A stretch of DNA of 64,000 nucleotides, taken from assembly GCA_017412045.1 (NCBI GenBank), contig JAFQOX010000017.1, forward strand, positions 6,183 through 70,182. The letters run 5' to 3'. Under the pieces are notes generated by a model. It searched no databases. It saw only the letters and a list, made by a program, of their open reading frames with translations, and had not been told where the DNA came from. Each line of letters begins with the position of its first letter. The first letter of the stretch is position 1. This document shows positions 5,654 to 62,108 of this stretch, one piece after another. This DNA is from Clostridia bacterium. GTDB lineage: Bacteria; Bacillota; Clostridia; Oscillospirales; CAG-272. The position numbers and the translations under genes were made by a program.

Positions 5654-6151
5654 ATGAAAAAACTTCTTATCTTGTTTTGTCTTTTTTCCATACTTCTTTG
5701 TTCGTGCGGCAAGGCGGACGAGGTTCTCGACCTCTCCGCCTTTCATGAAAATTTCCGCACGGAGCACGGTGCGCTTTTTGATAACGCAAGCTGTGAACAC
5801 GATCTGCGGTATCGGAATATGCCCGATCCGCTTTCGGATGACGACGTGACCGTTTATCATGAGGTTTCATGCTATTACGGCAATTGCGATTTTGAAACGC
5901 ATTTGGAACCGCATACGGTCTCTTATTCAAACATTCAAGTTCAAAACGGAAATCCCAAATTGAAAGAAAACGGCTGTCTGTATCACCGTTTGGTCGTTCA
6001 ATGCGAATATTGCCGCGTTTATCCGTATTTTTATATCTACGTTTTATGCCCGAACCAAGATACTGCTTGTAAGGGCGGAAAAGAGTGCCTTGCCGGTGCG
6101 GATTGGGAGGAGATCTTATGCGATACGCCTTACGTAATATCGTACGATTAA
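5654..6151 (+). CDS. Cys/His-rich small lipoprotein, copy 1
   Basis: MKKLLILFCLFSILLCSCG is a signal peptide plus lipobox. The mature part has >=12 Cys. It is a paralog of 9459..9977, with shared blocks CEH.L.Y, YH..SC..G.CD.E.H.EPH, KENG.LYH, C.EC, DW.EI...TPY.I. Confidence 0.7.
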   Translation: MKKLLILFCLFSILLCSCGKADEVLDLSAFHENFRTEHGALFDNASCEHDLRYRNMPDPLSDDDVTVYHEVSCYYGNCDFETHLEPHTVSYSNIQVQNGNPKLKENGCLYHRLVVQCEYCRVYPYFYIYVLCPNQDTACKGGKECLAGADWEEILCDTPYVISYD

Positions 6152-7593
6152 AAACGCGGAGCTTTCTGAGCTTTGCCATCGCGTTTGCCATTCTTTTTCT
6201 TTCCATGCTCGGCGTTTTGACCGTTCGGCTCTGCGAGGATAACCGAGAACGCTTTTTCGGTCCGCTCGACGGCGCCTATCACGTAACGGACAGTGCCTAT
6301 ACGCCCTTCCTTTCCTATGAGGCGGCGGAATATCTGGAGAAATATTCCGAAGCGATCACGAAGACCTCCGCCGTGATGGAGCGGACGGTTTCTTTTCCCG
6401 ATATGGAGTATATCGGGAAAAACGATTATGCGAGAGAAACCTTCGGCTGGGAAAGGGCTTACCTTCCCATTGGAACGGCACAAACGGCGTATCACGAGGG
6501 CTTTCTTCTTTGCGCGGTGACCTCTATGGATATTTTGAAGGAGGTCTACGGCGGTGATCTCGTCATGACGGAAGGCACGGCGATCAGTGAAAAAAACAAC
6601 GCCGACGGTGCAAACAAGATCGTGATTTCCTTCTCGGTCGCAGAGAAAAACGGATTGAAGCTTGGAGACCGCGTGCATCTCGATCCGTTTTCCGTTTTCA
6701 GTGAAGAAGAAGGCGCAGTTTCCGCTTACCTTGGATTCTCCGAAGAGTATTCGGCGTATGAATACATCGTCGGCGGTATTTATGAAAACCGTGAGAATAA
6801 CGGAGTTTCCGCTTCGCTTCCGAGTGAGATCAATGAAAATAAGGTTTATATCCCCATCTCGACTCTGACGGAAATGGCGAGAGATCCCTATCTTCTTGAT
6901 TTTGGCATTCGTAACGAAACGGGGCTTTCCGAGGAACCGCCGTCCGTGATTCCCGACAGACTCTATTTTCAGGTAAACAATACGGGAAGCGTAAAAATTT
7001 TAGAGAAAAAAATAAATGAGATCGGTTTTTCGGAGGCGCTTCTGCTTTCGCCCTATATATCCGATGCGGCTTCTTCACCATCCGCAAGACTTTCCGAGAT
7101 CGTTTCCTTGCTTCTTGTCGGTGTGATCGGAATGGGCTTTGCCGTTTTTGCGCTTACGGTGTTTTTTAATATGAAAGCAAGGAACAGAGAGCTTGCCGTG
7201 CTGACGGCACTCGGACAAAAGCGAAGCTGTGTCGTTCTCTCGTTTTTTGCTGAAATCTGTATTCTGACCTTTTTAGCCTTCCTGTGCGGTATTTTTCTTT
7301 TGATGGGAGCGGTCGTGCTTTTGGCTGTTCCGATCTCAAATTACTTGTATGAAGCTGAATTTTCGGCAAAGATTACGCATGAAAGCGCGGATCTCTTTTT
7401 GATCGGAAGCGGAGCGCAATCTGCCGCAACTGAAAAATTGGAGGATTTCGATTTTCTTTTTACTCGATATATCATACCGAGCACCGCGCTTTCCGCATTG
7501 GCGGCGGTCTTGATCCTGCTTCTTATTTTCGGTATCGTAGCTTTTTATGTCCGTAAGATCAACGCATTGTCGGGAGTGGGAGGAAAAGAATGA
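6118..7593 (+). CDS. ABC transporter permease, MacB/FtsX type, 4 TM with large extracytoplasmic domain, copy 1
   Basis: MRYALRNIVRLKTRSFLSFAIAFAILFL (typical FtsX-family N-terminus plus TM1), ~300 aa ectodomain, then TM2-loop-TM3-loop-TM4 (IVSLLLVGVIGMGFAVFALTVFFNMKARNRELAVLTALG...ALAAVLILLLIFGIVAFYV). Overlaps both the upstream and downstream genes. Confidence 0.85.
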   Translation: MRYALRNIVRLKTRSFLSFAIAFAILFLSMLGVLTVRLCEDNRERFFGPLDGAYHVTDSAYTPFLSYEAAEYLEKYSEAITKTSAVMERTVSFPDMEYIGKNDYARETFGWERAYLPIGTAQTAYHEGFLLCAVTSMDILKEVYGGDLVMTEGTAISEKNNADGANKIVISFSVAEKNGLKLGDRVHLDPFSVFSEEEGAVSAYLGFSEEYSAYEYIVGGIYENRENNGVSASLPSEINENKVYIPISTLTEMARDPYLLDFGIRNETGLSEEPPSVIPDRLYFQVNNTGSVKILEKKINEIGFSEALLLSPYISDAASSPSARLSEIVSLLLVGVIGMGFAVFALTVFFNMKARNRELAVLTALGQKRSCVVLSFFAEICILTFLAFLCGIFLLMGAVVLLAVPISNYLYEAEFSAKITHESADLFLIGSGAQSAATEKLEDFDFLFTRYIIPSTALSALAAVLILLLIFGIVAFYVRKINALSGVGGKE

Positions 7594-9350
7594 CGGTTTT
7601 AAAATTTGCTTTTCGGAATTTGATTCGCCTGCCTTGGCGAACTCTTTTATATTTTGCCATCGTATTTTTCATCGTCCTATCCGTCTCGGCTTCTCTTTTC
7701 GTATACGTTGCGTGTGAAAACGCGGGAGAGGCGCTGGATGAAAATTATGTGTTCGTTGCTTCGCTCGTTCCGAGGAAAAAGGATTCCCTCGCCCTTCGGG
7801 ATATCGGATACTGCGCAGACGGAACGGAAATTCTTTCTTTTCACGTGTCCATGTCGGAAAATAACGGCGTGATTCTCGGCGGCGCGTATATGCAAAGGCT
7901 TCCCGAAAAAACGGAGATCGCAAACGCGCCTTCGGCATGGGTGGACGAAATCGGCGCAAGGCTCGTTGCCGTGGAAAATCTGCATCTCGTCCCCTCCTTC
8001 TTTTCGGGAGAATGTACGTTGCAAAGCGGCACGGGTATTACCGAAAAAGGCTATGCGGGCGAACGTGCCGAGCTTGTGATCCCGTGGCGGCTTGCAGAGA
8101 AATACGGTGTTTCCGTCGGTGATACGCTCATCAGACGGTATTACCGCGACGACTACGAAACGTATATTTATTTGGAAAGCGAGATCGTCGGTATTTATAA
8201 AACGAGCGCGATTTCGCCCGATGAAAACGATGATCCCGTATATATTCCTCTTGCCGTTGCGGAATTGGATTATGCCACGCTCATTTCGGAGCGGCAAACG
8301 CCAACCTCCGAGCTGATCATCGAACGCGCGGATTTCGTTTTGAAGGATAGAAACGCATTTGAACCGCTCGTTTTGCAGGCTGGGGCAAACGGACTGGATT
8401 TCCGTAGAGCCGATCTCGTATTCAATAACGGCGCTTACGATACGCTTTCGGGCGAGCTTCGGAGCATTACGTCGATTGCTATGCTCGTTCTGTTCGGTGT
8501 TTTGGCTGTCGGTGTAAGCGTTCTCGTCTTTTTTACGCTCTATCTCTGCCATGCAAGAGACCGCGAAAAAACGTTGCTTTCTGCACTCGGGATGAGCCGC
8601 GGAGGCATCCGCGCCATGCTCACCCTTGAATTGCTCACAGTTGCTGTTTGTGCTTTTCTGATCGGAGGTGTGGCAGGTTATTTTACGGCAGATGCCGTTT
8701 GCGGCTACGTGAACGATTCGGTATTGACCGATGAAGAAATTTCAAGCAAAATCGAAGGCACGGGGCGCGGAAGTCAAACGGATATCACGGCACCCCTTGA
8801 GCAAAACATCAAAATAGAGATTTCCGTGCGCTCCGTTCACGTTTGTGCATCCGGACTCACGGTCAACGAAACGAAAATGCCGAGAGAGGACGAAATCGGT
8901 GTCAGCAGGCATTTGTATTATCGCATCGGCAACGATCTGACGGATATGATGCAGGGAAAGGCTCGCGTGCCGACCTCGGTCGTGGGCATTACGGATATGA
9001 GCGCCGTCAAAACGACCGTTTGGGACGAGTCCTTTTCCGGTATCCGTGTTTTTGTCAGCGAGGATTTTAATATGGGAGCAATGGAGAGTAACCGTATTTT
9101 TCTGACACCTTACGATCAAAACGGGTACGTATCGCTCAAAAAGGATTCTTCTTCGCTCGGCGATGCAAGCTTGCCGAAAAATACGTCTGTGCGAATCGTG
9201 GGAGTCTATGAAGAAAACGAATATTGCTCGGGAAACGATCTGCTCGTCTGCATGGAGGATTATCACAGGCTTTATTCCGAATTTTCCATCACGGACGAAA
9301 GCTTTTTCTTTGAGCGCATCGGCACGGTTTATACAAAAAATGAGCCGTAA
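7590..9350 (+). CDS. FtsX-family permease-like protein, atypical: TM1, ectodomain, TM2, TM3, then ~215 aa hydrophilic C-terminal domain and no TM4, copy 1
   Basis: MTVLKFAFRNLIRLPWRTLLYFAIVFFIVLSV..., FtsX core ITSIAMLVLFGVLAVGVSVLVFFTLYLCHARDREKTLLSALGMSRGGIRAMLTLELLTVAVCAFLIGGVAGYF. No further hydrophobic span is present up to the C-terminus (...VGVYEENEYCSGNDLLVCMEDYHRLYSEF...). ATGA overlap with the upstream gene. Confidence 0.75.
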   Translation: MTVLKFAFRNLIRLPWRTLLYFAIVFFIVLSVSASLFVYVACENAGEALDENYVFVASLVPRKKDSLALRDIGYCADGTEILSFHVSMSENNGVILGGAYMQRLPEKTEIANAPSAWVDEIGARLVAVENLHLVPSFFSGECTLQSGTGITEKGYAGERAELVIPWRLAEKYGVSVGDTLIRRYYRDDYETYIYLESEIVGIYKTSAISPDENDDPVYIPLAVAELDYATLISERQTPTSELIIERADFVLKDRNAFEPLVLQAGANGLDFRRADLVFNNGAYDTLSGELRSITSIAMLVLFGVLAVGVSVLVFFTLYLCHARDREKTLLSALGMSRGGIRAMLTLELLTVAVCAFLIGGVAGYFTADAVCGYVNDSVLTDEEISSKIEGTGRGSQTDITAPLEQNIKIEISVRSVHVCASGLTVNETKMPREDEIGVSRHLYYRIGNDLTDMMQGKARVPTSVVGITDMSAVKTTVWDESFSGIRVFVSEDFNMGAMESNRIFLTPYDQNGYVSLKKDSSSLGDASLPKNTSVRIVGVYEENEYCSGNDLLVCMEDYHRLYSEFSITDESFFFERIGTVYTKNEP

Positions 9351-9458: not shown

Positions 9459-9977
9459 ATGAAAAGATATATTCTGCTTTGCTTGCTTGCGTTTTGCGTT
9501 TTGCTGTTTTCCTCTTGTCACGCGGTTTCCGAAACGCATTTGGATCCATCCCATTACGGTGAGGATTTCAGAATCAAAAACGAAATGCTTTTTCCGAACA
9601 CGGAATGTGAGCATTCCTTGGTTTATACGCCGACGGACGGTACGGAGGCGGATATGTATCACAAGACCTCCTGCAAATGGGGCGGATGTGATTACGAGGC
9701 GCACGGAGAACCGCACGTATTTCTGTTTAAGCAGGGGTATTTGCCGAGCGCGAGAGCGCATTATAAGGAAAACGGATATCTGTATCATTCCTTCCGGATG
9801 GCTTGCGAGGAATGTCACGGAGCGGTCACGCTCCACGTTCTTTGCCGTACGCAGAATGCCGAATGCGGCGCGGGCGAAGGGGCGATCCACGCGCCTGCCG
9901 TATGCTTTGCAGGCTGTGATTGGCAAGAAATCTTTCGGGGAACGCCGTATCGGATCACGGTGCGCTCCGATGCGTGA
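9459..9977 (+). CDS. Cys/His-rich small lipoprotein, copy 2
   Basis: MKRYILLCLLAFCVLLFSSC is a signal peptide plus lipobox. Paralog of 5654..6151. AAGGAG RBS is present. Confidence 0.7.
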   Translation: MKRYILLCLLAFCVLLFSSCHAVSETHLDPSHYGEDFRIKNEMLFPNTECEHSLVYTPTDGTEADMYHKTSCKWGGCDYEAHGEPHVFLFKQGYLPSARAHYKENGYLYHSFRMACEECHGAVTLHVLCRTQNAECGAGEGAIHAPAVCFAGCDWQEIFRGTPYRITVRSDA

Positions 9978-9994
9978 CGGAAGGCGGTGGCGCT

Positions 9995-11467
9995 TTGTAT
10001 TACGCGATTCGAAATATAGGCAGACAGAAGGCAAAAAGCCTTCTTGTTCTTCTGATGGCGTTTGCCGTCCTGTTTCTTTCTCAATTCGGATTTTTTATGC
10101 GCTGTATATCCGAACACGTGAGAGAACGCTTTTGGGGACCGCTTGACGGCTCCGTTCACGTGACGGATGACGATCTTGAGGCGTATCTTACCTACGATGC
10201 CGCCGTTACGCTTGCGAACGATGCGGAGGTGATCACCCGTCTCTCTGCCGTGAAAACCTATACGGGCTTTTTCCGTAACGCCGTTTACGTGGGCTACGGT
10301 AGCTATCAGCGTCCGCAATATGCGGGAGAAACACCGACCGCGGACAGAAAAAGCAATTATCTTACGGGTGTTTGCGTGAAAGCCGTGACCTCCATGGAGA
10401 TTCTTGAGGAGACGTACGGCGGTGTTCTGGCGGTGGTGCAAGGCTCGGCGATCACCGACGAAGACACGGATCTGCGGAAAAACAAGATCGTTGTCTCGGA
10501 AAAATTCGCTGAAGCCAACAACCTGCGGATTGGAGATTCTCTCGTATTGGATACCTTGTCCCTTTATCAGACAGAGGCGGAAGCGGTACGCTTCGGTATG
10601 ACGGATCTGTATGACAAAAATAAATTTACGTATGCATATACCGTGGGCGGTATCTACCGTTTGCATACGGACAATGCGGCGGCAGCTTCTGTTCCGTGGG
10701 AATTGTATGACAATATCGTTTACGTGCCAATGACGACGGCGGAGAATATCTCCGTTTCCGAAGGCGTACGGACGATGTTTGAGAGCGAGGATGTTTTCGC
10801 CTTGAGGACCAATCCCGTTTTGGTTCCCGATGCGCTGTATTTTCATCTTTCGGATATCGGCTGTGCGCAAGCGCTTGCCGAAGAAATGAACGGAATCGGT
10901 TTTTCCGAGCGAATCAGGCTGACGCCGTACGTTTCCGATCTTTCGTCCTCTCCTTCTGCGCGGCTTTCGGAGGTCGTATCGGGGACGCTTGTCGGTGTGA
11001 TCGCGGCGGGTTTTGCCGTATTGCTGTTGACCGCGCTTTTGAATATGAGGGCAAGACGGCGCGAATTTGCCGCCCTGATCGCCATGGGTAAAAAAAGAGA
11101 GTCCGTTGCTTTGTCCTACGCTCTTGAGCTTGGGCTTCTGATCGTCTCGGCGTTTCTTTTGTCCGCCGTAGCGATGACGGTCATCGCCTATCTGTGCGCG
11201 GCACCACTCTCCCGGTATTTGTACGCCGCAGAGGAAGCGGCTTTGTTTCACACCGAAAGCGCGGATCACTATCTTTTTGGCGATTGGAGCGATCCGCTTG
11301 CCGTGCAGGTGCAAGCGTCCATTCCCGCGCTTTTCCGTGAATATATGATGCCGAACATCGTATTTACGGGAGCGGTGACGGCAGTTTTGATGCTGTTGCT
11401 TTGCGGTATGATTTCAGTCTATGTAAAAAACGTACACCCAATGTACGATGCGGGGGGGAAGGAGTAA
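9995..11467 (+). CDS. ABC transporter permease, MacB/FtsX type, 4 TM, copy 2
   Basis: Paralog of 6118..7593 (WGPLDGSVHVTDDD / FGPLDGAYHVTDSA; SPSARLSEVVS / SPSARLSEIVS; NMRARRREFAALIAMG). A TTG start at ~9995 (LYYAIRNIGRQKAK) preceded by GGAAGG aligns with the copy 1 N-terminus. The track ORF begins at 9920 inside the upstream gene. Confidence 0.8.
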   Translation: MYYAIRNIGRQKAKSLLVLLMAFAVLFLSQFGFFMRCISEHVRERFWGPLDGSVHVTDDDLEAYLTYDAAVTLANDAEVITRLSAVKTYTGFFRNAVYVGYGSYQRPQYAGETPTADRKSNYLTGVCVKAVTSMEILEETYGGVLAVVQGSAITDEDTDLRKNKIVVSEKFAEANNLRIGDSLVLDTLSLYQTEAEAVRFGMTDLYDKNKFTYAYTVGGIYRLHTDNAAAASVPWELYDNIVYVPMTTAENISVSEGVRTMFESEDVFALRTNPVLVPDALYFHLSDIGCAQALAEEMNGIGFSERIRLTPYVSDLSSSPSARLSEVVSGTLVGVIAAGFAVLLLTALLNMRARRREFAALIAMGKKRESVALSYALELGLLIVSAFLLSAVAMTVIAYLCAAPLSRYLYAAEEAALFHTESADHYLFGDWSDPLAVQVQASIPALFREYMMPNIVFTGAVTAVLMLLLCGMISVYVKNVHPMYDAGGKE

Positions 11468-11468
11468 T

Positions 11469-13256
11469 ATGACGGTCATCAGAATGGCTTTTCGGAATCT
11501 CGTCCGTTTTCCGAAAAGAACGGTTTTATACGGACTTACGGTTTTTCTTCTCGTCTTTTCCATCACCGTCTCTCTTTTCGTATACCGTGCGTGCGGTCTG
11601 GCGGAAAGCACGCTGGAGGAGCATTATGTTTTCGTCGCTTCTCTGGTCAAAAGAACACAAGGACGCAATATTCCGCTTTCTGAGATCTTCAAATGCACGC
11701 CTTATAAAAAATTGTTGGCATTCAACGTCACCGTTTCGGAGGGAGAGGGCGTATTTCCCGCAGGCTCTGCGCTGACGGAGCTTCCTTCTGCCGATAGGGA
11801 CGAAAATCCGACGGACGTTTGGCTTGAAGGACCGGGCTGTCCCATATACGGCGTAGAAAATCTGGGGCTCGTTTATCCGTTTTTCTCGGGAGAATGTCAT
11901 ATCACGCAGGGAACGGCGCTGACGGAAAAGGGATACTGCGGCGAAGCCGACGAGACGGTGATCCCCTGGTGGATGGCGGAGCGCTACGGACTCAAGGTCG
12001 GCGATACCGTGAACCGCCGTTATCTCCGACAGACGGGAGAATTTGCCTATATTTATATCCCGACGGAGATCGTGGGTATTTATGCGACGTCCTCTCCCTC
12101 GCCGAATATTGAAAATTATCCTGCGTATATTCCGCTTGCCCTGGCGGAGACGGACTACGGCAAAATCTTGCCGAGCGCAACGGATGCCGGGGATATCCGC
12201 GTGGAAAGAGCCGATTTCGTGCTGAAAAACAGGGAGGATTTTGCGGATTTCGTCGCGTTCGCGCAAGCGCAGGGCTTGGATTTCACGTCTGCCAATCTTG
12301 TTTTCAATAACAGCACCTATGACGTGCTGTGCGCCGAGCTTCAAAATATCGGTCATATTGCGCTCCTCGTATTTGCCGCCGCTACTCTCGCAGGTGTCGG
12401 CACGCTGATTTTTCTGACGGTCTATCTTTGCAGAGCGAGAGAAAAAGAAACGGCGATTCTTCGCGCTCTGGGAATGAAAAAAACGAAGATCTACGCTTTG
12501 CGTGCGTTGGAATTTGCTTTGCTCATCGCCGTTTTTTCTTCGGTAGGATTTTTGGGAGGTCGTTTTGCGGCAGGGGCGGTTTGCGATTTCGTCAACGGTA
12601 CGGTTCTGGCGCGTGCCTCCGCATCCGAGGAAATACAAGATCTGAATGCATCGGAAAGTTTTGTCATTACCATGCCGCTCGAAAAAGATTTCAACATGAA
12701 AATATCCCTTTCTCCGTCTCAAATTGCCGATGCCGCCGTTGCGGTGCATTCGTTGCCGAAGCTTTCCGTAAACGAGCTTGGGATCTCGCGCCATCCATTT
12801 TACTTGTTTATGACGGACTCGGAGAATCTGACCGCTACGCCCGAAGCGATGAAGGCGTTTGAAACGAGGGAAAAGCTCCGGATGGATATCGTCGGCGTAA
12901 CGGATCTTTCCGTTTTTGAACTGACGGAAACGAAGGAATTTCCCGAAAATTTCGTCAGGATCTACGTGAATGAAACTTCTCCGTATGCCAATGAAGAGAG
13001 CCTGTTTTTGTCGGCGGACGATTTCGGAGATTACGTTTCGGTTCTTCTGTATGAAGCGGGGATCTCGCCGGACGGAGGCAGATTGGGACAAGTGAAAAGA
13101 TATTATATTGCCGGTACTTATCAGGAAAATGAATATTGCTCGGGCGATGACATCCTTGTTTCCATGGAGGACTATCATAAAATATATTCCGATATATCCG
13201 TCACGGATCACATCAATCATTTTCAGCGCATCGGCGCAGTTTGGGAAAAGGAGTGA
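11469..13256 (+). CDS. FtsX-family permease-like protein, atypical (3 TM plus C-terminal ectodomain), copy 2
   Basis: MTVIRMAFRNLVRFPKRTVLYGLTVFLLVF... Paralog of 7590..9350 with the same architecture and the conserved C-terminal block GTYQENEYCSGDDILVSMEDYHKIYS. The start follows the upstream stop by 1 nt. Confidence 0.75.
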   Translation: MTVIRMAFRNLVRFPKRTVLYGLTVFLLVFSITVSLFVYRACGLAESTLEEHYVFVASLVKRTQGRNIPLSEIFKCTPYKKLLAFNVTVSEGEGVFPAGSALTELPSADRDENPTDVWLEGPGCPIYGVENLGLVYPFFSGECHITQGTALTEKGYCGEADETVIPWWMAERYGLKVGDTVNRRYLRQTGEFAYIYIPTEIVGIYATSSPSPNIENYPAYIPLALAETDYGKILPSATDAGDIRVERADFVLKNREDFADFVAFAQAQGLDFTSANLVFNNSTYDVLCAELQNIGHIALLVFAAATLAGVGTLIFLTVYLCRAREKETAILRALGMKKTKIYALRALEFALLIAVFSSVGFLGGRFAAGAVCDFVNGTVLARASASEEIQDLNASESFVITMPLEKDFNMKISLSPSQIADAAVAVHSLPKLSVNELGISRHPFYLFMTDSENLTATPEAMKAFETREKLRMDIVGVTDLSVFELTETKEFPENFVRIYVNETSPYANEESLFLSADDFGDYVSVLLYEAGISPDGGRLGQVKRYYIAGTYQENEYCSGDDILVSMEDYHKIYSDISVTDHINHFQRIGAVWEKE

Positions 13257-15242: not shown

Positions 15243-15581
15243 ATAGCATTCCTCCTAAAAATAAAAATCAATCATCTTTTTCGTTTTGCGGATTTTTGAG
15301 AAAATCAAACGTGATTCTTCGAAATTGTTGAGTCCAAAAGCGATTTAATGAAAATATTATACAGCGAAAATGTGTGATTTGTCAATAGGATTTTCAAAAA
15401 AACAGAAAAAAATCTCTAAAAATAAACATGAAATATTCATCAAAAAACAATGAATCCTTTTCACGCGTTTTGTTGACAAGTAAAAAGGAAAATGCTATAA
15501 TAATAAAGTATCGAATTGTAATATCATCGGTAAAATATAATATGATCGAAACGGATATAGGACAGAAAGGAACAATGGATT

Positions 15582-17321
15582 ATGACGAAACGAATTCCCA
15601 AAATATCGCTCCGTGCGATGTCGCTTGCCAAGCAATGCGGAATCAGCAGTAAAGATTTGTATTTAATTACGCCGACAGGCGCTGACGGCAGAATCACCGA
15701 AGAGGACGTTTTGCTCGCAGCCAAGGCGAAAATGGATATGGCTTCCGTGGCAGCGCAAAAGCCCGCAGCGGAAAAAGCACCCGTTGCGGAAGAAGTACCT
15801 GTAACGGAAAAAGCGCCCGTTGCAGAAAAAGCACCCGTTGCGGAAGAAGTACCTGTAACGGAAAAAGCGCCCGTTGCAGAAAAAGCACCCGTTGCGGAAG
15901 AAGCGCCCGTGGCGAAAGAAGCGCCCGTGGCAGAAAAAGCACCCGTAGCGGGAGAAGCGCCCGTTGCGGAAGAAGCACCCGTTGCAGAAAAAGCGCCCGT
16001 TGCGGAAGAAGCGCCCGTTGCGGAAGAAGCGCCCGTTGCAGAAAACGCACCCGTAACGGAAGAAGCGCCCGTAGCGGAAGAAGCGTCCGCAGCAGAAGAA
16101 GCGCCCGTAACGGAAGAAGCACCCGTTGCGGAAGAAGTACCCGTTGCAGAAGAAGCGCCCGTAACGGAAGAAGCACCCGTTGCGGAAGAAGTACCCGTTG
16201 CAGAAGAAGCGCCCGTTGCAGAAGAAGCGCCCGTTGCGGAAGAAGTGCCCGTAACGAAAGAAGCGCCCGTTGCGGAAGAAGCGCCCGTTACGGAAGAAGC
16301 ACCCGTAACGGAAGAAGCACCCGTTGCGGAAGAAGTACCCGTTGCAGAAGAAGCACCCGTTGCAGAAGAAGCGCCCGTAGCGGAAGAAGCACCCGTAGCG
16401 GAAGAAGCACCTGTGGCAGAAGAAACTCCCGTAGCGGAAGAAGCCCCCGTGACGGAAGAAGCACCTGTGACAGAAGAAACTCCCGTGGAAGCGCCGGACA
16501 GCGTTGCCATTGAAAAAATCGAGACGGAAAAACAGGAACAAACCGCAATCATTGCCAAACCCGTGATGAACGAAGAAACGATCGGCGATCAGAGCGCAGA
16601 AGGAGAGATCCCGAAGCATGAGACGGTTCATTCCTTTGATTCGGAGGCATACCTTCATACGGACGTCATCATTCCGAGAACGGAAACCGCGCCGGACGGA
16701 ACGCCGATGACGGTCAGTATGTCCTTCGATGCTTCTTCTATCGTGAGATTACATACGATGATCAAGGAGAACGGCGAAGCGATGGGAATTCCTCACGTTA
16801 CGATCAACGATATGATTCTCTTTGCGGCGGCAAAGCTTCTGAAGAAAAACAAAGCGCTGAACGCGCATTTTCTCGGAGACAAGATCCGTTATTTCGACGG
16901 CGTGCATCTCGGATTCGCCGTAGATACCGATCACGGTATGGAGCTTCCCGTGGTATTCGATGCGGATAAGCTTTCCCTCTACGCGCTCACGCAGGTTACG
17001 GATGCTTTGATCAGAGGCGCAAGAGCGGGCAAAATCGCTTCCGGCAAAACGAAGCCCTGCGCTTCCTTCACGGTATCCAATCTCGGCACGCTCGGCGTGG
17101 AATATTTCATGCCGACGCTGAAGGCACCGCAGACCGGAATCCTCGGCGTTTGCGCGTTGCAGAAGAGAGTGAAGGAGGTTGGCGGAAAGGACGTATTCTA
17201 CTCCTGCATCCCGCTCTCCCTGACCTTCGATCCCCGCGCGCTGGATACCACGAGCGCCGCGAAATTCCTGCGCGATCTTTGCGTATCGCTGGAAAATTTT
17301 GAATTGTTGCTGTTGAAATAA
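15582..17321 (+). CDS. 2-oxoacid dehydrogenase E2 (dihydrolipoamide acyltransferase)-like protein with no lipoyl domain, a long Pro/Ala/Glu repeat linker and a degenerate catalytic motif
   Basis: N-terminal E3/E1-binding-like segment ([29 protein letters not shown]), ~240 aa of [AV]PV[AT]E[EK] repeats, and a C-terminal catalytic-domain pattern ([39 protein letters not shown]). Confidence 0.75.
15760..16490 (+). repeat. About 40 tandem copies of an 18-bp coding repeat (GAAGAAGCNCCCGTTGCG-like, hexapeptide APVAEE) with 54-bp higher-order units
   Basis: Read directly. For example, the 54-mer gaagaagtacctgtaacggaaaaagcgcccgttgcagaaaaagcacccgttgcg occurs twice back to back near 15788-15895. Confidence 0.9.
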
Positions 17322-20861: not shown

Positions 20862-20939
20862 TTGGGGTTAGACTCGTAAATTTCCGTTTATCGGATCAAA
20901 AAGAAAACGCGGTCGCCCTGAAAAAAGACGTAATTTCCC

Positions 20940-31806: not shown

Positions 31807-31996
31807 AGAGCCTCCTGATTCGTACTGACGGAAAAACGTCCTTTTATAAATATATTTCCAATTCATTATATCAAATTATTCAAAAAAAAGATATAGTTTT
31901 TCAAAGATTTTTCAAACTTTTTCTTGACAAAAGCAAAACACCGTGATAGAATGAAAGTGTTCCAAACAGAACAGTTCTGTGAAGGTTGGTGATCGG

Positions 31997-50178: not shown

Positions 50179-50257
50179 AAAAAGTAAATGCTGAGACCGG
50201 AGAGTTAACCGAGGCAACAGGAAATTTCTTGACAAAAGAAATTTCCCGTGATATAAT
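50179..50257 (+). promoter_or_regulatory. 15-mer AAAAAGTAAATGCTG, then a consensus promoter TTGACA-17-TATAAT whose -35 sits inside a perfect 11-bp inverted repeat
   Basis: Motif 50179-50193. GGAAATTTCTT-gacaa-AAGAAATTTCC at 50220-50246. -35 at 50229, -10 at 50252. Confidence 0.6.
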
Positions 50258-50291
50258 AAATTTATCTTATATAGAATGAAAGGTTTTTTCT

Positions 50292-51815: not shown

Positions 51816-51889
51816 GCGGGTGTAGTTCAATGGTAGAACTCCAGCCTTCCAAGCTGGTCGCGTGGGTTCGATTCCCATCATCCGCTCCA
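51816..51889 (+). tRNA. tRNA-Gly (anticodon UCC), CCA encoded
   Basis: Acceptor GCGGGTG/CATCCGC, anticodon arm CCAGC-CTTCCAA-GCTGG, T arm GTGGGTTCGATTCCCAT. Confidence 0.9.
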
Positions 51890-51966
51890 GTGCCTTTAGC
51901 TCAGCAGGATAGAGCAACTGCCTTCTAAGCAGTAGGTCGAGGGTTCGAATCCCCCAAGGCACGCCA
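51890..51966 (+). tRNA. tRNA-Arg (anticodon UCU), CCA encoded
   Basis: Acceptor GTGCCTT/AAGGCAC, anticodon arm ACTGC-CTTCTAA-GCAGT, T loop GGTTCGAATCC. Confidence 0.9.
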
Positions 51967-51971
51967 GTTAT

Positions 51972-52049
51972 GGTGGATATGGCTCAGTTGGTTAGAGCGC
52001 CAGGTTGTGGCCCTGGAGGCCGTCGGTTCGAATCCGATTATCCACCCCA
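51972..52049 (+). tRNA. tRNA-His (anticodon GUG) with encoded G-1, CCA encoded
   Basis: G-1 plus GTGGATA/TATCCAC-C, anticodon arm CCAGG-TTGTGGC-CCTGG, T loop GGTTCGAATCC. Confidence 0.9.
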
Positions 52050-52056
52050 CAGAAAA

Positions 52057-52087
52057 AAGCAAGTCGATTTTCGACTTGCTTTTTTGT
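52057..52087 (+). terminator. Rho-independent terminator of the tRNA operon
   Basis: AAGCAAGTCGA-ttt-TCGACTTGCTT followed by TTTTG. Confidence 0.8.
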
Positions 52088-52148
52088 TTTATATCCGTGA
52101 ATCTATTTCAAAAAACAGAATAATTCGATAAAAAATCTTATTAAAATA

Positions 52149-52275
52149 AAAAAGCGGGCAACGCCCGCTGGAAAACTGCTTGCTCTGCAAGCTGTGTGCT
52201 CGCCTACCGCAGTTTAGCCTGTATTCAAACAATACAAAACGGCGAGGTCGAATTTGCGCAATTTCCTATGGTATA
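52149..52275 (-). repeat. Structured ~125-nt intergenic repeat, copy A (reverse orientation), ending in a terminator-like hairpin GCGGGCAACGCCCGC
   Basis: The reverse complement aligns with copy B (53216-53347). The hairpin-proximal ~45 nt are identical and the remainder is roughly 85 percent identical by eye. Confidence 0.75.
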
Positions 52276-52346
52276 AAAAAGTAAATGCTGTCGATCTATC
52301 AATTTACCGCACGGGTCTTGACGAAACGTTTTTTCGAGGCTATAAT
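52276..52346 (+). promoter_or_regulatory. 15-mer AAAAAGTAAATGCTG followed by the promoter TTGACG-17-TATAAT of the PHP gene
   Basis: Motif 52276-52290, -35 at 52318, -10 at 52341. Confidence 0.6.
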
Positions 52347-52444
52347 GACATTATAGGCTATGCTGTTATCATGCGAAATAATTTTTGAAGTAAACGAACG
52401 GCATATATAGAATCAACCTCGGAAAAGCAATGAAAGGAAGGCTC

Positions 52445-53146
52445 ATGACCATGGTAAAAAAAGATTTTTATTGCTATGAAACGCATTTACATACCTCCCC
52501 CGTCAGCAAATGCGCCCACGCGACGGTCAGGGAAACGCTGGAAGCTTACGCGCGATTGGGTTATGACGGTGTTTTTATCACCAATCATTTTTTAGGGGGC
52601 AATATTCTGCGCGATCCGTCCTGGTCCTACGAGGAAACGGTGCACTTCTATTTTTCGGATTACGAAGAAGGCGTCCGCATCGGTAAAAGCTTGGGGCTCG
52701 CGGTTTTTTGCGGCATTGAATTGTCTTATCACGGAACGGATTTTCTGGTTTACGGGCTCGGAAAAGATTGGTATCTGGCGCACCCCGAGATCGAATCCAT
52801 GAAAATTTCCTCGTTGCTCACGTTTCTTGCGGAGGCAGGCGCGCTGATCATTCACGCCCATCCCTTCCGTGAGGCGTCGTATATCGACCATATCCGACTG
52901 TTCCCCCGTCATATTCACGGAATCGAGACTTATAACGCTTGCCGTACTCCCTTTGAAAACGGCATGGCGGAAATGTACGCGCAATATTACGGTATGCCCA
53001 CGTTTTCGGGATCCGATAATCATAACGCCGGTATGCAGAAGAAATTCGGCGGTATGCAATCGGATACGCCGCTCCGCGACGAGGCGGATTTCATCGGACG
53101 CTACAGAAGGGGCGAATTGCGTTTGATCCGCATGGAGCTTGCATAA
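52445..53146 (+). CDS. PHP-domain metal-dependent phosphoesterase (histidinol-phosphatase-like)
   Basis: YETHLHTSPVSKCA, GVFITNHF and IIHAHPFRE His/Asp motifs. AAAGGAAGG RBS favours ATG 52445 over the track start 52430. Confidence 0.75.
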   Translation: MTMVKKDFYCYETHLHTSPVSKCAHATVRETLEAYARLGYDGVFITNHFLGGNILRDPSWSYEETVHFYFSDYEEGVRIGKSLGLAVFCGIELSYHGTDFLVYGLGKDWYLAHPEIESMKISSLLTFLAEAGALIIHAHPFREASYIDHIRLFPRHIHGIETYNACRTPFENGMAEMYAQYYGMPTFSGSDNHNAGMQKKFGGMQSDTPLRDEADFIGRYRRGELRLIRMELA

Positions 53147-53174
53147 GAATGACGGTTTTCGGCTTTACCGAAAA

Positions 53175-53221
53175 AAGAGTAAGAATGAAAGGGTTTCCGC
53201 CCTTGATTCTTACTCTTTTTT
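53175..53221 (+). terminator. Bidirectional-looking terminator after the PHP gene
   Basis: AAGAGTAAGAAT...ATTCTTACTCTT flanked by A and T runs. Confidence 0.65.
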
Positions 53222-53347
53222 ATCGCATAGGAAATTGCGCAAATAGAACCTCGCCGTTTATATCGTTTGGATACAGTCTTAACTGCGATAGGCGAGCACA
53301 CAGCTTGCAGAGCAAGCAGTTTTCCAGCGGGCGTTGCCCGCTTTTTT
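53216..53347 (+). repeat. Structured ~125-nt intergenic repeat, copy B
   Basis: TTATCGCATAGGAAATTGCGCAAATAGAACCTCGCCGTTTATATCGTTTGGATACAGTCTTAACTGCGATAGGCGAGCA..., then GCTTGC-aga-GCAAGC, then GCGGGCGTTGCCCGC followed by TTTTTT. Confidence 0.75.
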
Positions 53348-53360
53348 CGTAATGGGAATT

Positions 53361-53936
53361 TTACAGAAGCATTTCCGAAAGATCGATAAATTCAGAAAGC
53401 TTTCCCGTAAATTTGTGATCGGTATCGGGAACGCTGACGATCTTCATGCGCGCGCTTTTCCCTTCCAGAAAAACGGCATAGCGGAATGAAATATCTCTTT
53501 CTCCGAATACGGCGATCACCTCGGTTTCGGGAATGGCGGAAAGGAATTGCTTCGTTTTGTGAAAATTGATGGTCAGAGGCATATTGACGAGAACCATCCG
53601 ACGGAATGGAATTTCAGCCGCCAGCGCAAGTCCCTTCTGACAGCCGTTGGAATTGCCGAAAAGATACAGCTCGGGATTTTCGATGCCGCATTTCCGAAGC
53701 GCTTCCGAAAGAACGGCGCGGTCGTCCTTTACGCCGAACCGATTGTCGTTCGGGTTGGAAACGCTGATCACCGTACAGCCGTGCTTTTCATGCAGATTGC
53801 GGGCGATCCGCAGATATTTATTTTCATATCCCGTATAATTTCCGCCGAGTCCCGCCTTGATGAAAACGACCTTTTCGTTGCCGGGGAGATAGCCGTATTC
53901 CAAATCGCCTGCGACGCGGATAAAATCAACGTTCAT
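53361..53936 (-). CDS. Alpha/beta-hydrolase-fold protein, unknown substrate
   Basis: Nucleophile elbow LFGNSNGC (GxSxG) and C-terminal PDTDHKF. GGAGG RBS lies 8 nt before the ATG at 53936. The track ORF extends to 53951. Confidence 0.6.
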   Translation of the reverse strand: MNVDFIRVAGDLEYGYLPGNEKVVFIKAGLGGNYTGYENKYLRIARNLHEKHGCTVISVSNPNDNRFGVKDDRAVLSEALRKCGIENPELYLFGNSNGCQKGLALAAEIPFRRMVLVNMPLTINFHKTKQFLSAIPETEVIAVFGERDISFRYAVFLEGKSARMKIVSVPDTDHKFTGKLSEFIDLSEMLL

Positions 53937-54643
53937 GTTTCCAGCCTCCATCCGCAGTCTCCGTGATAGATCATCTGTCTCGTCATGCCGCCGTCGACGC
54001 AGATGTTCTCGCCCGTGATGAAGCCCGCCATATCAGAGCAAAGAAAAAGCACCGTGTTGGCAATATCGGGCGGATTTCCCACCCGTCCAACGGGTTGCTG
54101 GACGGCATCCGCGCCATCGTAAACGGTATAGGCGTTGTCGATCCAGCCCGGCGAGACGGAATTGACTCTCGCCTTTCCCGCGAGACTGACGGCGAGCGCG
54201 TGAGTCAGCGCGGAAATTCCGCCTTTTGCCGCCGTATAGCTCTCCGTCTGCGGCTGGCTCATGCGATCGCGCGAGGAAGAGATATTAACGATAGCGGCAT
54301 CCTTTCCGAAATAAGGCGCGAGGAGCTTCGTCAGATAAAACGGTGCAGTCACGCCAACGCGCAGGGCGTTTTCAAAATCCTCGTAGCTTCCGTTTTCAAT
54401 GCCGCGTGAGAGAGGGGCGGCGTTGTGGATCAGATAATCCACTCTGCCGTATTCCGCAATGATCTTCGCGGCAAACGCCTCCAGAACGGCTTTCTCAGCC
54501 AGATCTCCAACGAAATAGTCGTTGGGAAGCAGGTCAATGACGAGCACCGTCGCGCCTGCTTTTTCAAATTCTTCGCGGATGCATTTTCCGATGCCCCGCG
54601 CACCGCCCGTTACGACGGCGATTTTATTTTTAAAATCAAACAT
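53933..54643 (-). CDS. SDR-family oxidoreductase
   Basis: VVTGGARGIGK cofactor motif, NISS, catalytic YTAAKGG. Confidence 0.9.
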   Translation of the reverse strand: MFDFKNKIAVVTGGARGIGKCIREEFEKAGATVLVIDLLPNDYFVGDLAEKAVLEAFAAKIIAEYGRVDYLIHNAAPLSRGIENGSYEDFENALRVGVTAPFYLTKLLAPYFGKDAAIVNISSSRDRMSQPQTESYTAAKGGISALTHALAVSLAGKARVNSVSPGWIDNAYTVYDGADAVQQPVGRVGNPPDIANTVLFLCSDMAGFITGENICVDGGMTRQMIYHGDCGWRLET

Positions 54644-57035: not shown

Positions 57036-57232
57036 CTGTGAAGATTCCTTTCTCATTTTTTCGTATCGAAAGATCGTTTCCTTGAAAACTTCTGCTTGTA
57101 TTATATCACAATCCGTTTTATTTGTAAAGATAAACGGAAATTTACGCAACAGACAGAGCTTTTTTATTTTAATATGATTTTTTATCAAATATGAAAAAGA
57201 TAAGATTTTTCATATTCAGAAAATCTTAAAGC

Positions 57233-57303
57233 AAAAAGTAAATGCTGTTGCCCCGGACGAAAAAATTGCTTTGCTTGACAAAAGGCGGATTTTGTGTTAT
57301 ATT
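57233..57303 (+). promoter_or_regulatory. 15-mer AAAAAGTAAATGCTG followed by the promoter TTGACA-17-TATATT of the LRR surface protein gene
   Basis: Motif 57233-57247, -35 at 57275, -10 at 57298. Confidence 0.6.
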
Positions 57304-57326
57304 AAAATCAGTTTTTTATCGGTTGC

Positions 57327-59254: not shown

Positions 59255-60061
59255 ATGGAAACGATGAAGCATTACGTTGTTGCCGATCCGCACGGATATT
59301 ATACGCATTTGGAAAGAGCGCTCCGCGAAGCCGGTTTTTTCGATGAGACCGAGCCGTGTAAGGTGGTGGTTTGCGGCGATCTTGCGGACAGAGGAAAAGA
59401 AGCCAATGCAATGATTGATTTTATGCTTCGGCTGAAGGAGGAGGGGAAGCTCGTCTATATTCTCGGCAATCACGAGGATCTGCTCGTACAATGCCTGCAT
59501 AAGATCGCGGGCGGCGGCGTCCACGAGGTTGCCAGCGGGATGTCCCACCATTACCATAACGGGACTTGGGATACGCTTTTGCAAATCAGCGGTATGGATG
59601 AATTGAGCGCCTATAATAATCCGTACGCAATGGTCAAGGAGGTGCTGTATTCTCCGTTTTACAGAGAACTGCTCCCCTTCGGCGTGGATTACTACGAAAC
59701 GAAGCGTTATATTTTTACACACGGCTGGATCCCTTGCTTCGTCAGAGGGAACCGTCCGTATCTGCAATACGAATACAATCCCGATTGGCGTTCGGAGGAG
59801 ACCGTCATATGGCAGCGCGCCCGTTGGTTCAACGGTATGGAGCTTGCCTGCAAGCACGGTATCACCGTGCCCGAAAAAACGGTCGTTTGCGGACATTGGC
59901 ACACCTCCTACGGTCACGCGCTGATCGAAAATAAGGGAACGGAATTCGGAAGCGACGCGGATTTTTCCCCTTTTTATGCGGAGGGGATCATCGCGCTCGA
60001 TGCCTGTACGGCGCGCAGCAGAAAGGTCAACTGCATCGTGATCGAGGACGATCCGATCTGA
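59255..60061 (+). CDS. Metallophosphoesterase (PPP/ApaH-like Ser/Thr phosphatase family)
   Basis: VVADPHGYY, VVCGDLADRG, LGNHED, VCGHWHT motifs. Confidence 0.85.
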   Translation: METMKHYVVADPHGYYTHLERALREAGFFDETEPCKVVVCGDLADRGKEANAMIDFMLRLKEEGKLVYILGNHEDLLVQCLHKIAGGGVHEVASGMSHHYHNGTWDTLLQISGMDELSAYNNPYAMVKEVLYSPFYRELLPFGVDYYETKRYIFTHGWIPCFVRGNRPYLQYEYNPDWRSEETVIWQRARWFNGMELACKHGITVPEKTVVCGHWHTSYGHALIENKGTEFGSDADFSPFYAEGIIALDACTARSRKVNCIVIEDDPI

Positions 60062-60066
60062 AAAAT

Positions 60067-60101
60067 AACCGCCCCTGTCAGACGTGACAGGGGCGGTTTC
60101 T
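60067..60101 (+). terminator. Rho-independent terminator
   Basis: AACCGCCCCTGTCA-gacg-TGACAGGGGCGGTT followed by TCTT. Confidence 0.75.
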
Positions 60102-60207
60102 TATCGCATAGGAAATTGCGCAAATAGAACCTCGCCGTTTATATCGTTTGGATACAGTCTTAACTGCGATAGGCGAGCAACCTCCGGCGGGCGTTGCCCG
60201 CTTTCTT
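60100..60207 (+). repeat. Structured intergenic repeat, copy C (short form)
   Basis: The first ~79 nt are identical to copy B by eye. It lacks the internal GCTTGC-aga-GCAAGC hairpin and ends with the same GCGGGCGTTGCCCGC hairpin. Confidence 0.75.
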
Positions 60208-61509: not shown

Positions 61510-62004
61510 TTACAGCTCCCGCAGAGCCCTCTCTCTGTATTTTTCAATACGCGAAAGGAATTCGTATTCTGTCAGCACGGTTTTTCGCGTATCGTGCTTT
61601 CCGACGCCGTGCGTGAGCGTTCTGCCCTTTGCGCGGATCAGAGCCTTGACGAAATCTCCGTTGGTATACAGCGCGTCGTAAGCACGGTCCAGGAAATGCT
61701 GATACTCGTCGCTTCCGCGGCGCATCGCCTTGCCCTGCCAATAGAGAATGCCCGTCAGCTTCCATCTTACGTTCTGCCATTTTTTCTCAAACGAACGCTT
61801 CGCAGCCATACCGGATCGCAGGCAGATTTCCTTCTGCAATTTGATATTTTTCGTTTTCAGTGATTGGAGCAAGCCCTCCATCGAAGCGCAGGGAACGCCG
61901 TCCAGAACGAAAGCGTAATTTTTAAAATTGGAGAGCATCTGCCGCTCCTCTTTATCTTCGCCCTCGGCGGTTCCCTTGATATCAAGAACCTTTTGATTCT
62001 CCAT
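61510..62004 (-). CDS. Hypothetical protein with a NADAR (YbiA/DUF1768)-like N-terminal motif
   Basis: LSNFKNYAFVLDGVPCASMEGLLQSLK...SGMAAKR resembles the NADAR block SNF...DG....sEh..Qa.K. The C-terminal half diverges. GGAGGTG RBS precedes the ATG at 62004. Confidence 0.35.
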   Translation of the reverse strand: MENQKVLDIKGTAEGEDKEERQMLSNFKNYAFVLDGVPCASMEGLLQSLKTKNIKLQKEICLRSGMAAKRSFEKKWQNVRWKLTGILYWQGKAMRRGSDEYQHFLDRAYDALYTNGDFVKALIRAKGRTLTHGVGKHDTRKTVLTEYEFLSRIEKYRERALREL

Positions 62005-62108
62005 CTTTTCACACCTCCAAAAATACGGATATTGAAAACAGAAATCTTTCCCCTCGTAAGGAAGGGAAAGATTTTCGCATAGCATAATAAAATTGTTGAT
62101 CGCCGCGC

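Follow-up and report, generated by a model that had tools for sequence, protein, structure and literature searches.

Small structured repeats at terminator T-tracts in uncultured gut Clostridia, a probable family of non-autonomous mobile elements

The 64,000-nt stretch of Clostridia bacterium contig JAFQOX010000017.1 analysed here (the window) carries three copies, A, B, and C, of a short structured repeat. Copies A (body at 52154-52274, minus strand, 121 nt) and B (53222-53341, plus strand, 120 nt) lie on either side of a PHP-family phosphoesterase gene (52445-53146, plus strand; 233 aa from an ATG after a AAAGGAAGG ribosome-binding site), and copy C (60103-60201, plus strand, 99 nt) lies beyond a metallophosphoesterase gene (59255-60061). 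In element orientation, copy A is flanked by six Ts on its 5' side (52275-52280) and on its 3' side (52148-52153). Copy B is inserted at the T-tract of the PHP terminator hairpin (53177-53215, plus strand, -19.4 kcal/mol), with T6 of that terminator directly 5' (53216-53221) and another T6 directly 3' (53342-53347). Copy C follows the terminator hairpin of the metallophosphoesterase gene (60069-60096, plus strand, -25.4 kcal/mol). On the other side of copy A are the genes for tRNA-Gly(TCC), tRNA-Arg(TCT), and tRNA-His(GTG) (51816-52049, plus strand; ARAGORN, Rfam), whose operon terminator (52053-52085, plus strand; consensus scan) ends approximately 62 nt before the copy. This proximity had been described in a sequence-only reading of the same DNA; the nearness of the repeat to the tRNA cluster is incidental.

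The same reading had described three structured copies, with A reversed and A and B inverted around the PHP gene, and this arrangement was confirmed by a repeat search of the window and by alignments. The inverted matches 52148-52238/53257-53347 and 52237-52281/53215-53259 were 93 and 89% complementary, respectively, and the direct repeat 53216-53298/60097-60179 reached 99%. In pairwise alignments the stretch of identity noted between B and C measured the first 77 nt, without differences, and A and B were identical over their last 59 nt. A three-way alignment placed the internal hairpin GCTTGC-AGA-GCAAGC, correctly reported as lacking in copy C, in a 21-nt block present in A and B. All 12 differences between A and B fell within the first 69 nt, so copy B is a mosaic of two subtypes, which points to gene conversion or sequence exchange between copies. 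A covariance model built from 17 copies and run on the window with filters off recovered exactly three copies (104-118 bits), the next match scoring 13.7 bits, and the 17-mer described below occurred three times in the window at up to 3 mismatches vs. 0.36 expected. Chance is excluded as the origin of the repeat. Direct reading of copies A, B, and C revealed no coding potential and no conserved open reading frame (ORF), tiny ORFs included. Only tRNAs passed the gathering threshold in an Rfam scan of the window, with nothing of note in the repeats at E<=10 (best matches inside them approximately 12-13 bits vs. a gathering score of 80); group II introns, HEARO/omega RNA, ribozymes, and riboswitches were among the families looked for, none of which matched the repeat. 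That the repeat encodes no protein and belongs to no recognised RNA family was thus upheld.

For copy C, the state before insertion was present in two other contigs (L031 and L032), whose identity to the window was 98.4-98.8% to the left and to the right of the site. Their empty site reads ...GACAGGGGCGGTTTCTT/GATCATACG..., and the filled site in the window reads ...GGTTTCTT, followed by the element (ATCGCATAGG...GCGGGCGTTGCCCGC), TTTCTT, and GATCATACG. The insertion comprises 105 nt and leaves the 6-nt interrupted T-tract TTTCTT on both sides, a clean empty/filled pair in which the duplication spans at least CTT and at most 6 nt. The left target copy (60097-60102, plus strand; empty site GGGGCGGTTTCTT/GATCATACG) is the T-tract of the metallophosphoesterase terminator, and the right one (60202-60207, plus strand) is now the T-tract of the element's own hairpin. 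Copy C therefore stands immediately 3' of an intrinsic-terminator T-tract and has that tract on both sides. In another species, the final T-run of near-identical copies (L001b, L002) is TTTTTT, not TTTCTT. Because copy C ends in TTTCTT and these copies in TTTTTT, the T-run 3' of the element hairpin is target-derived; the initial description, in which this run belonged to the repeat, was corrected by the empty site. The metallophosphoesterase terminator is probably bidirectional, serving the convergent MFS gene as well, because an A-run lies upstream and the T-tract downstream of its hairpin.

Copies were also found elsewhere. The window was 100% identical to an ENA metagenome scaffold (L006, 133 kb). 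An exact-pattern scan of one genome per species yielded copies in two metagenome-assembled genomes (MAGs), Oscillospiraceae bacterium SIG642 and Clostridia bacterium RGIG4737 (roe deer rectum), and further scans yielded eight more contigs among metagenomes and no copies among viral contigs. The element had no BLAST match in plasmid or phage collections. The fetched loci contained 18 model matches of 37-123 bits, and approximately 20 further copies were found in at least three other Oscillospiraceae/Clostridia metagenome lineages. The genes flanking them were unrelated housekeeping genes (e.g., argG/argH, dapB/lysA-like, GH92), and additional copies were located near PHP or metallophosphoesterase homologues of other species (L022 and, as a 200-nt variant, L033). 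Three short-read contigs (L007, L016, L017) ended inside a copy, as expected of dispersed repeats.

The target preference was strict. In all copies (20/20) the 5' end lay against a T-tract on the element's own strand, and at 13 of the 20 sites this tract was preceded by a hairpin, forming an intrinsic-terminator motif. Two tandem pairs, in which the second copy sits on the 3' hairpin and T-run of the first, are both among the 13. Orientation relative to the T-tract was constant across the approximately 20 copies; if orientation were random, a single orientation in 20 of 20 would have a probability of approximately 2^-19. A number of copies, B and C among them, are situated between convergent genes; others are found within gene clusters (e.g., argG-argH), and there the T-run on the 3' side is degenerate. 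A diverged copy of the latter kind (L005, 2527-2634, minus strand) is located between argG and argH on the coding strand, behind a terminator-like hairpin, and its own T-tract is TTTG, as if there had been selection against full termination inside the cluster.

Read from 5' to 3', the element consists of a variable tip, an invariant 17-mer, a 6-bp stem with its loop, a linker, and a GC hairpin that constitutes the 3' end. The tip is 2-6 nt long and varies in length and sequence by subtype (ATCGC, ATACC, ATTGC, AAAC, ATGC, and others). The 17-mer, ATAGGAAATTGCGCAAA, is located at 53227-53243 (plus strand) in B, 52253-52269 (minus strand) in A, and 60108-60124 (plus strand) in C, and the 5' part of the element is unstructured, without a stable hairpin. 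The 6-bp stem CUCGCC/GGCGAG encloses approximately 36 variable nt, among them a small 5-bp hairpin. The linker is short and in some copies carries an extra hairpin, which in A and B is the GCTTGC-AGA-GCAAGC module (52178-52192 in A; 53303-53317, plus strand, in B; absent in C) and in L033 is of another kind. The 3' hairpin GCGGGC-GTT-GCCCGC (53327-53341, plus strand, in B; 52154-52168, minus strand, in A; 60187-60201, plus strand, in C) forms an intrinsic-terminator motif together with the target-derived T-tract, and a consensus scan agreed with the earlier description of the hairpins of A and B with their T-runs as outward-facing and terminator-like. The body measures 99 nt, approximately 120 nt with the optional module, and approximately 200 nt in one variant; the GC content of the copies is 43-50%. 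In the long variant (L033, 2335-2537, minus strand) the loop of the 6-bp stem holds an insertion of approximately 70 nt, and another hairpin occupies the position of the linker module, which indicates that the element tolerates modular insertions at two points.

Sequence conservation was highest in the subterminal 17-mer and the 6-bp stem, and pairing was conserved beyond that. When the 6-bp stem, the small hairpin, and the 3' hairpin were tested together, 93.5% of cells were paired (slid controls 34-45%) and seven pairs had changed on both sides; none of 500 shuffles reached the observed covariation score. Several compensatory changes fell in the small hairpin and the 3' hairpin and one in the 6-bp stem, which is CUUGCC/GGCAAG in L022. 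The 3' hairpin was 98% paired across copies, with compensatory changes at three pairs (GCGGGC/GCCCGC, GUGGGC/GCCCAC, GCGGCG/CGCCGC, and GCGGCA/UGCCGC). Of the internal inverted repeats pointed out initially, CTCGCC...GGCGAG is kept family-wide and TTGCGCAA lies inside the invariant 17-mer; the pairing ATCGCA...TGCGAT is restricted to the B/C subtype, is lost in other copies, and was rejected as a family structure. An alternative long-range inner helix was also rejected, as the local hairpin is better supported. Terminal inverted repeats were absent, the ends ATCGCATAGG... and ...GCGGGCGTTGCCCGC not being inverted repeats of each other. A weak, imperfect subterminal 9-nt complement (GGAAATTGC/GCAAYTTCC) occurs in most copies and might form a closing helix (GGAAAUUGC/GCAACUUCC), but pairing reached only 68% and no covariation was seen.

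With its unpaired, invariant 17-mer, its terminator, and stems that compensatory changes have preserved, the element has the architecture of a trans-acting small RNA (sRNA). The copies might accordingly be multicopy genes for a small regulatory RNA with a single-stranded 5' seed (AUAGGAAAUUGCGCAAA), stem-loops, and a Rho-independent terminator, their dispersal being secondary. Tandem copies exist, and sRNAs derived from MITEs (miniature transposable elements with inverted repeats), known in Coxiella, provide a precedent (review PMC10969869). However, conservation begins only 2-6 nt before the 17-mer, and the sequence upstream, mostly host terminator, differs from copy to copy; because this upstream sequence is unrelated between copies, no promoter travels with the element. 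Direct reading and a promoter scan likewise detected no conserved -35/-10 elements within or upstream of the copies on either strand, and the 3' U-tract is target-derived. We consider sRNA genes an unlikely primary explanation, one which is compatible with mobility.

The repeats probably (at roughly 0.72) constitute a family of mobile elements not described before, which are small, non-coding, and non-autonomous, occur in uncultured gut Oscillospiraceae/Clostridia, and insert at terminator T-tracts. The sequence-only reading had listed a MITE-like mobile repeat among its options. Mobility was supported by the empty site and duplication of copy C, by the polymorphism of copy A between strains (see below), and by the dispersed copies elsewhere; classical MITE status was not, as terminal inverted repeats are lacking. 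The elements are shorter than 300 bp, non-coding, and multicopy, with a target duplication (copy C) and strain-level polymorphism (C and A), while terminal inverted repeats matching a parent insertion sequence (IS) were absent and no parent IS was found. The family is best described as small non-autonomous interspersed repeats that are MITE-like in behaviour, and it is not filed as a classical MITE.

Because the body ends exactly with the GC-rich hairpin and the T-tract is duplicated, insertion creates a second terminator motif and leaves the host terminator intact. Where convergent genes share a bidirectional terminator, insertion lengthens the 3' untranslated region (UTR) of the opposite gene by an antisense element. 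Gene ends and convergent intergenic gaps would in this way act as safe landing sites. The element is probably recognised or used as a folded single strand, either single-stranded DNA (ssDNA) or RNA, rather than via terminal inverted repeats, presumably by an enzyme acting in trans; this is suggested by the lack of terminal inverted repeats, the variable 5' tip, the 3' hairpin that conserves pairing, and the strand-specific insertion. A mechanism new for bacterial miniature elements, strand-specific and structure-reading, working on ssDNA or with an RNA template, which would recognise intrinsic-terminator T-tracts and integrate a body that stops precisely at a hairpin, with the 17-mer and the covarying stems as recognition signals for the trans-acting enzyme, is a tentative extension to which we give only a small chance. 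A Pfam scan of the approximately 40 window ORFs detected no transposase, integrase, reverse transcriptase (RT), Y1 transposase domain, or recombinase. These ORFs are housekeeping genes or have no known function, and include DnaE, WhiA, MurB, a GMP synthase domain, a sigma factor, FtsX permeases, glycosidases, and a serpin. The ORFs beside the copies in L001 and L005, scanned in the same way, were housekeeping genes only.

The strict strand specificity at T-tracts and the 3' T-run taken from the target would also suit a bacterial retroposon resembling a short interspersed nuclear element (SINE). The U-tract of a terminated transcript would anneal to the A-tract opposite a host T-tract, and target-primed reverse transcription would duplicate the T-tract. 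This would explain why the target equals the U-tail of the transcript, and it agrees with the unequal T-run lengths on the two sides of several copies, the variable 5' tip, the lack of terminal inverted repeats, and the conservation of pairing over sequence in the 3' hairpin, the would-be 3' end of the RNA. However, no promoter is carried, and no RT gene was found in the window or the inspected loci. In addition, fragments in L003 and L009 (~1373-1417) keep the 5' end and lose the 3' end, the opposite of what target-primed reverse transcription leaves behind. We know of no bacterial precedent for a SINE-like retroposon, and regard this origin as very unlikely.

In lacking terminal inverted repeats, in having a hairpin close to its 3' end, and in inserting strand-specifically and without exception 3' of T-rich sequence (TTTTTTAT in many copies), the element is likewise reminiscent of palindrome-associated elements (PATEs) of the IS200/IS605 type. 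These are moved as ssDNA by a Y1 HUH transposase, have similar subterminal hairpins at the two ends, and insert 3' of a fixed target of four or five nucleotides, e.g., TTTAT, without duplication. At site A, comparison of the window with L016 indeed showed no duplication at the boundaries of the missing block. Peel-and-paste transposition would, however, bring along the element's own 3' end, whereas copy C has TTTCTT on both sides and source-like copies end in TTTTTT. Furthermore, the two hairpins are unrelated in sequence, the 5' part is without a stable hairpin, and no TnpA/TnpB gene lies nearby, which makes a PATE highly improbable. Three further candidates were rejected. Direct inspection spoke against template/variable repeats of a diversity-generating retroelement, as no copy falls within an ORF, an RT is lacking, and the differences are not confined to adenines, and against attC or dif-like sites, whose conserved motifs are absent. 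REP/REPIN sequences (20-40-bp palindromes with a GTAG or CGTC tag and a RAYT) have a different architecture, and the window holds no Y1 transposase domain.

Several points weigh against a mobile-element family. Neither an autonomous partner nor terminal inverted repeats were found, and conserved structure together with a terminator is also typical of an sRNA gene. The copy counts come from MAGs and metagenome contigs rather than complete genomes and are not per-genome numbers, and the covariation statistics, obtained from only 17 full-length and mutually related copies, are indicative only. Copy C is the sole clean empty/filled pair; at other sites the plain T-runs are uninformative, and the duplication length there is compatible with 4-8 nt and no more precise. 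Finally, the difference at copy A could reflect an imprecise deletion in sister strains and not an insertion in the window.

The latter comparison was made with two sister-strain contigs (L016 and L017), 97.2-98.9% identical to the window. Copy A is missing from both and copy B is present in both. The missing block of 152 nt (52121-52272) corresponds to the body plus one T-run/AT and 25 nt of AT-rich flank, and may represent either a single 152-nt loss in the sister strains or two separate events. The AT-rich stretch beside copy A (52121-52147, minus strand), which is part of this block, probably belongs to the native sequence upstream of the promoter rather than to the element, because 57160-57190 holds a paralogous 31-mer and a similar TTGATAAAAATCA lies upstream of PHP in another contig (L024).

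The window contains two PHP-flanking copies as separate insertions at two different T-tracts. Copy B was inserted at the PHP terminator; it is common to both other strain contigs recovered and is hence the older. Copy A entered an opposite-strand T-tract just upstream of the PHP promoter and is strain-specific. The PHP gene belongs to the host and is not cargo of the element. It had been proposed that A and B could act as a recombination substrate inverting the PHP segment, and more generally they might form a functional pair that inverts or mobilises a PHP cassette (an inverton, a dif-module-like unit, or a composite transposon). The two copies are indeed inverted and 1 kb apart, the 59 identical nt that they share would be enough for occasional RecA-dependent inversion, and the mosaic copy B suggests past exchange between copies. 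Against this, the position and orientation of PHP are the same in the sister-strain contigs that are without A, and no inverted PHP arrangement was seen among the contigs compared. PHP homologues of more distant relatives have other neighbourhoods, with no element copy flanking PHP; the single copy among these loci (L022, 5878-5985) is located approximately 2.4 kb from PHP. The element also occurs singly at many unrelated loci, and no recombinase gene is nearby. A functional PHP cassette is therefore extremely improbable; the two-copy flanking looks incidental, and rare homologous inversion via the shared 59 nt could be a side effect rather than a function.

Several further observations concern the surroundings of the PHP gene. 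The AT-rich 31-mer TTTTTTATTTTAATAWGATTTTTTATCRAAT occurs twice in the window (52123-52153, minus strand; 57160-57190, plus strand), and the TTGATAAAAATCA that resembles it lies upstream of PHP in L024, an 80%-identical relative without the element; the 31-mer has the appearance of a native motif upstream of promoters, outside the mobile element. Neither the 27-nt tail that follows copy A nor its near-copy at 57160-57190 was retained as part of the element or as a remnant copy, since other copies are without it, the model finds nothing at 57.1 kb, and a similar motif occurs upstream of PHP in the element-free relative. A 16-mer, AAAAAGTAAATGCTG[T/A] (plus strand), is found at 50179-50194, 52276-52291, and 57233-57248, 26-34 nt upstream of three TTGAC -35 boxes, with nine matches at up to 3 mismatches vs. 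0.45 expected; the three sites may have in common a motif bound by a regulator or one of UP type. Copy A is inserted at the A-run with which one of these sites (52276-52291) starts. The PHP neighbourhood is rearranged in relatives at 76-80% nucleotide identity (L018, L019-L021, and L024/L025 compared with 52.4-55.4 kb). L019 has the gene at 53361-53951 on the strand of PHP, L018 has it upstream of PHP, and in L024 an extra gene separates PHP from the homologue of this gene.

Other parts of the window contained further repeated or unusual sequences. An inverted match of 31 nt (81%) including GATAAACGGAAATTTACG links two intergenic regions (20875-20905 and 57116-57146) and might represent a site of the operator kind. 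Promoter-like segments that resemble one another, with the form TTTCTTGACAAAAG...GATAnAAT, are located at three places, 31920-31955, 50225-50260, and 57271-57306. An array of 18-nt tandem repeats with at least 38 registers (15636-16457) lies inside an ORF (15524-16558, minus strand) that has no Pfam match and probably encodes a hexapeptide-type repeat protein. Two adjacent paralogous pairs of FtsX/MacB-type permease genes (6085-9350 and 9920-13256) are approximately 3.9 kb apart and share patches of 71-83% identity. Although its surroundings are chromosomal, ORF 61510-62085 (minus strand) has a match to Pfam Phage_30_3 (bacteriophage GP30.3) at E=3e-43.

The PHP locus is in itself biologically ordinary. 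A family of mobile elements as proposed here accounts for a class of intergenic repeats that are unannotated and break assemblies in abundant uncultured gut Clostridia, and provides a sequence-level example of a safe landing site, in which a terminator T-tract is hit, the host terminator is kept, and the element's own 3' hairpin is made into a terminator. Insertions add tandem terminators at gene ends, lengthen the 3' UTR of the convergent gene, and are usable as strain-level markers in metagenomes. The family is also a starting point for work on its mode of transposition, which may depart from the usual DDE-transposase MITE model, and a tractable one because the elements are without terminal inverted repeats, insert in one orientation, and conserve pairing over sequence in their hairpins, notably the 3' one.

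In the literature on terminator-targeting miniature elements, SPRITE and group IIC introns were the only analogues found. Closest among described systems is SPRITE of S. pneumoniae, a small interspersed repeat that resembles a terminator and is enriched where convergent genes end; it is not known to have a partner IS, and neither a duplication nor an empty site could be established for it. It has a GC content of 28%, a stem of 18 bp, a long tract rich in U, and AAAA/TTTT ends, and is regarded as parasitic and non-autonomous (PMC3049150). Both are small non-coding interspersed repeats near gene 3' ends with an intrinsic-terminator-like fold and no known partner IS, and a Rho-independent-terminator-like stem with U-tract was called at A and B. 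Compared by published description, the elements differ in GC content (28 vs. 43-50% here) and stem length (18 vs. 6-7 bp here), and they would not be expected to be related in sequence; in addition, the T-tract here is target-derived, and a conserved 5' domain (17-mer and 6-bp stem) precedes the hairpin. Group IIC introns are found directly downstream of terminator motifs, i.e., an inverted repeat followed by Ts, in one orientation (PMC1702495). They share the post-terminator position, the single orientation, and the safe-site logic, but are ribozyme retroelements of approximately 0.7-2 kb that usually encode an RT, whereas the element measures 100-120 nt, has no Rfam group II match, and duplicates its target, which reverse splicing does not.

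The bcr1 repeat of the Bacillus cereus group is a structured repeat of approximately 150 bp whose mobility is tied to the pentanucleotide TTTAT, maybe duplicated, and to which neither a mechanism nor a transposase is assigned (PMC6199540). It shares with the present family a structured repeat in Firmicutes, a T-rich target, and the lack of an assigned transposase; it belongs to another host clade and, in the description consulted, is not presented as terminator-targeting or as ending in a hairpin that borrows a T-tract. Classical bacterial MITEs such as Correia, RUP, ERIC, and others (review PMC10969869) resemble the element in size (100-200 bp), in having no ORF, in dispersed copies, strain polymorphism, and target duplication, and in possible terminator-like structures. 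Unlike them, the element is without terminal inverted repeats, has a variable 5' tip and a strict orientation, and no related IS was identified. Four traits set this family apart: terminator T-tracts as its documented target, the borrowing of the T-tract, the lack of terminal inverted repeats, and a single-strand structure that is conserved.

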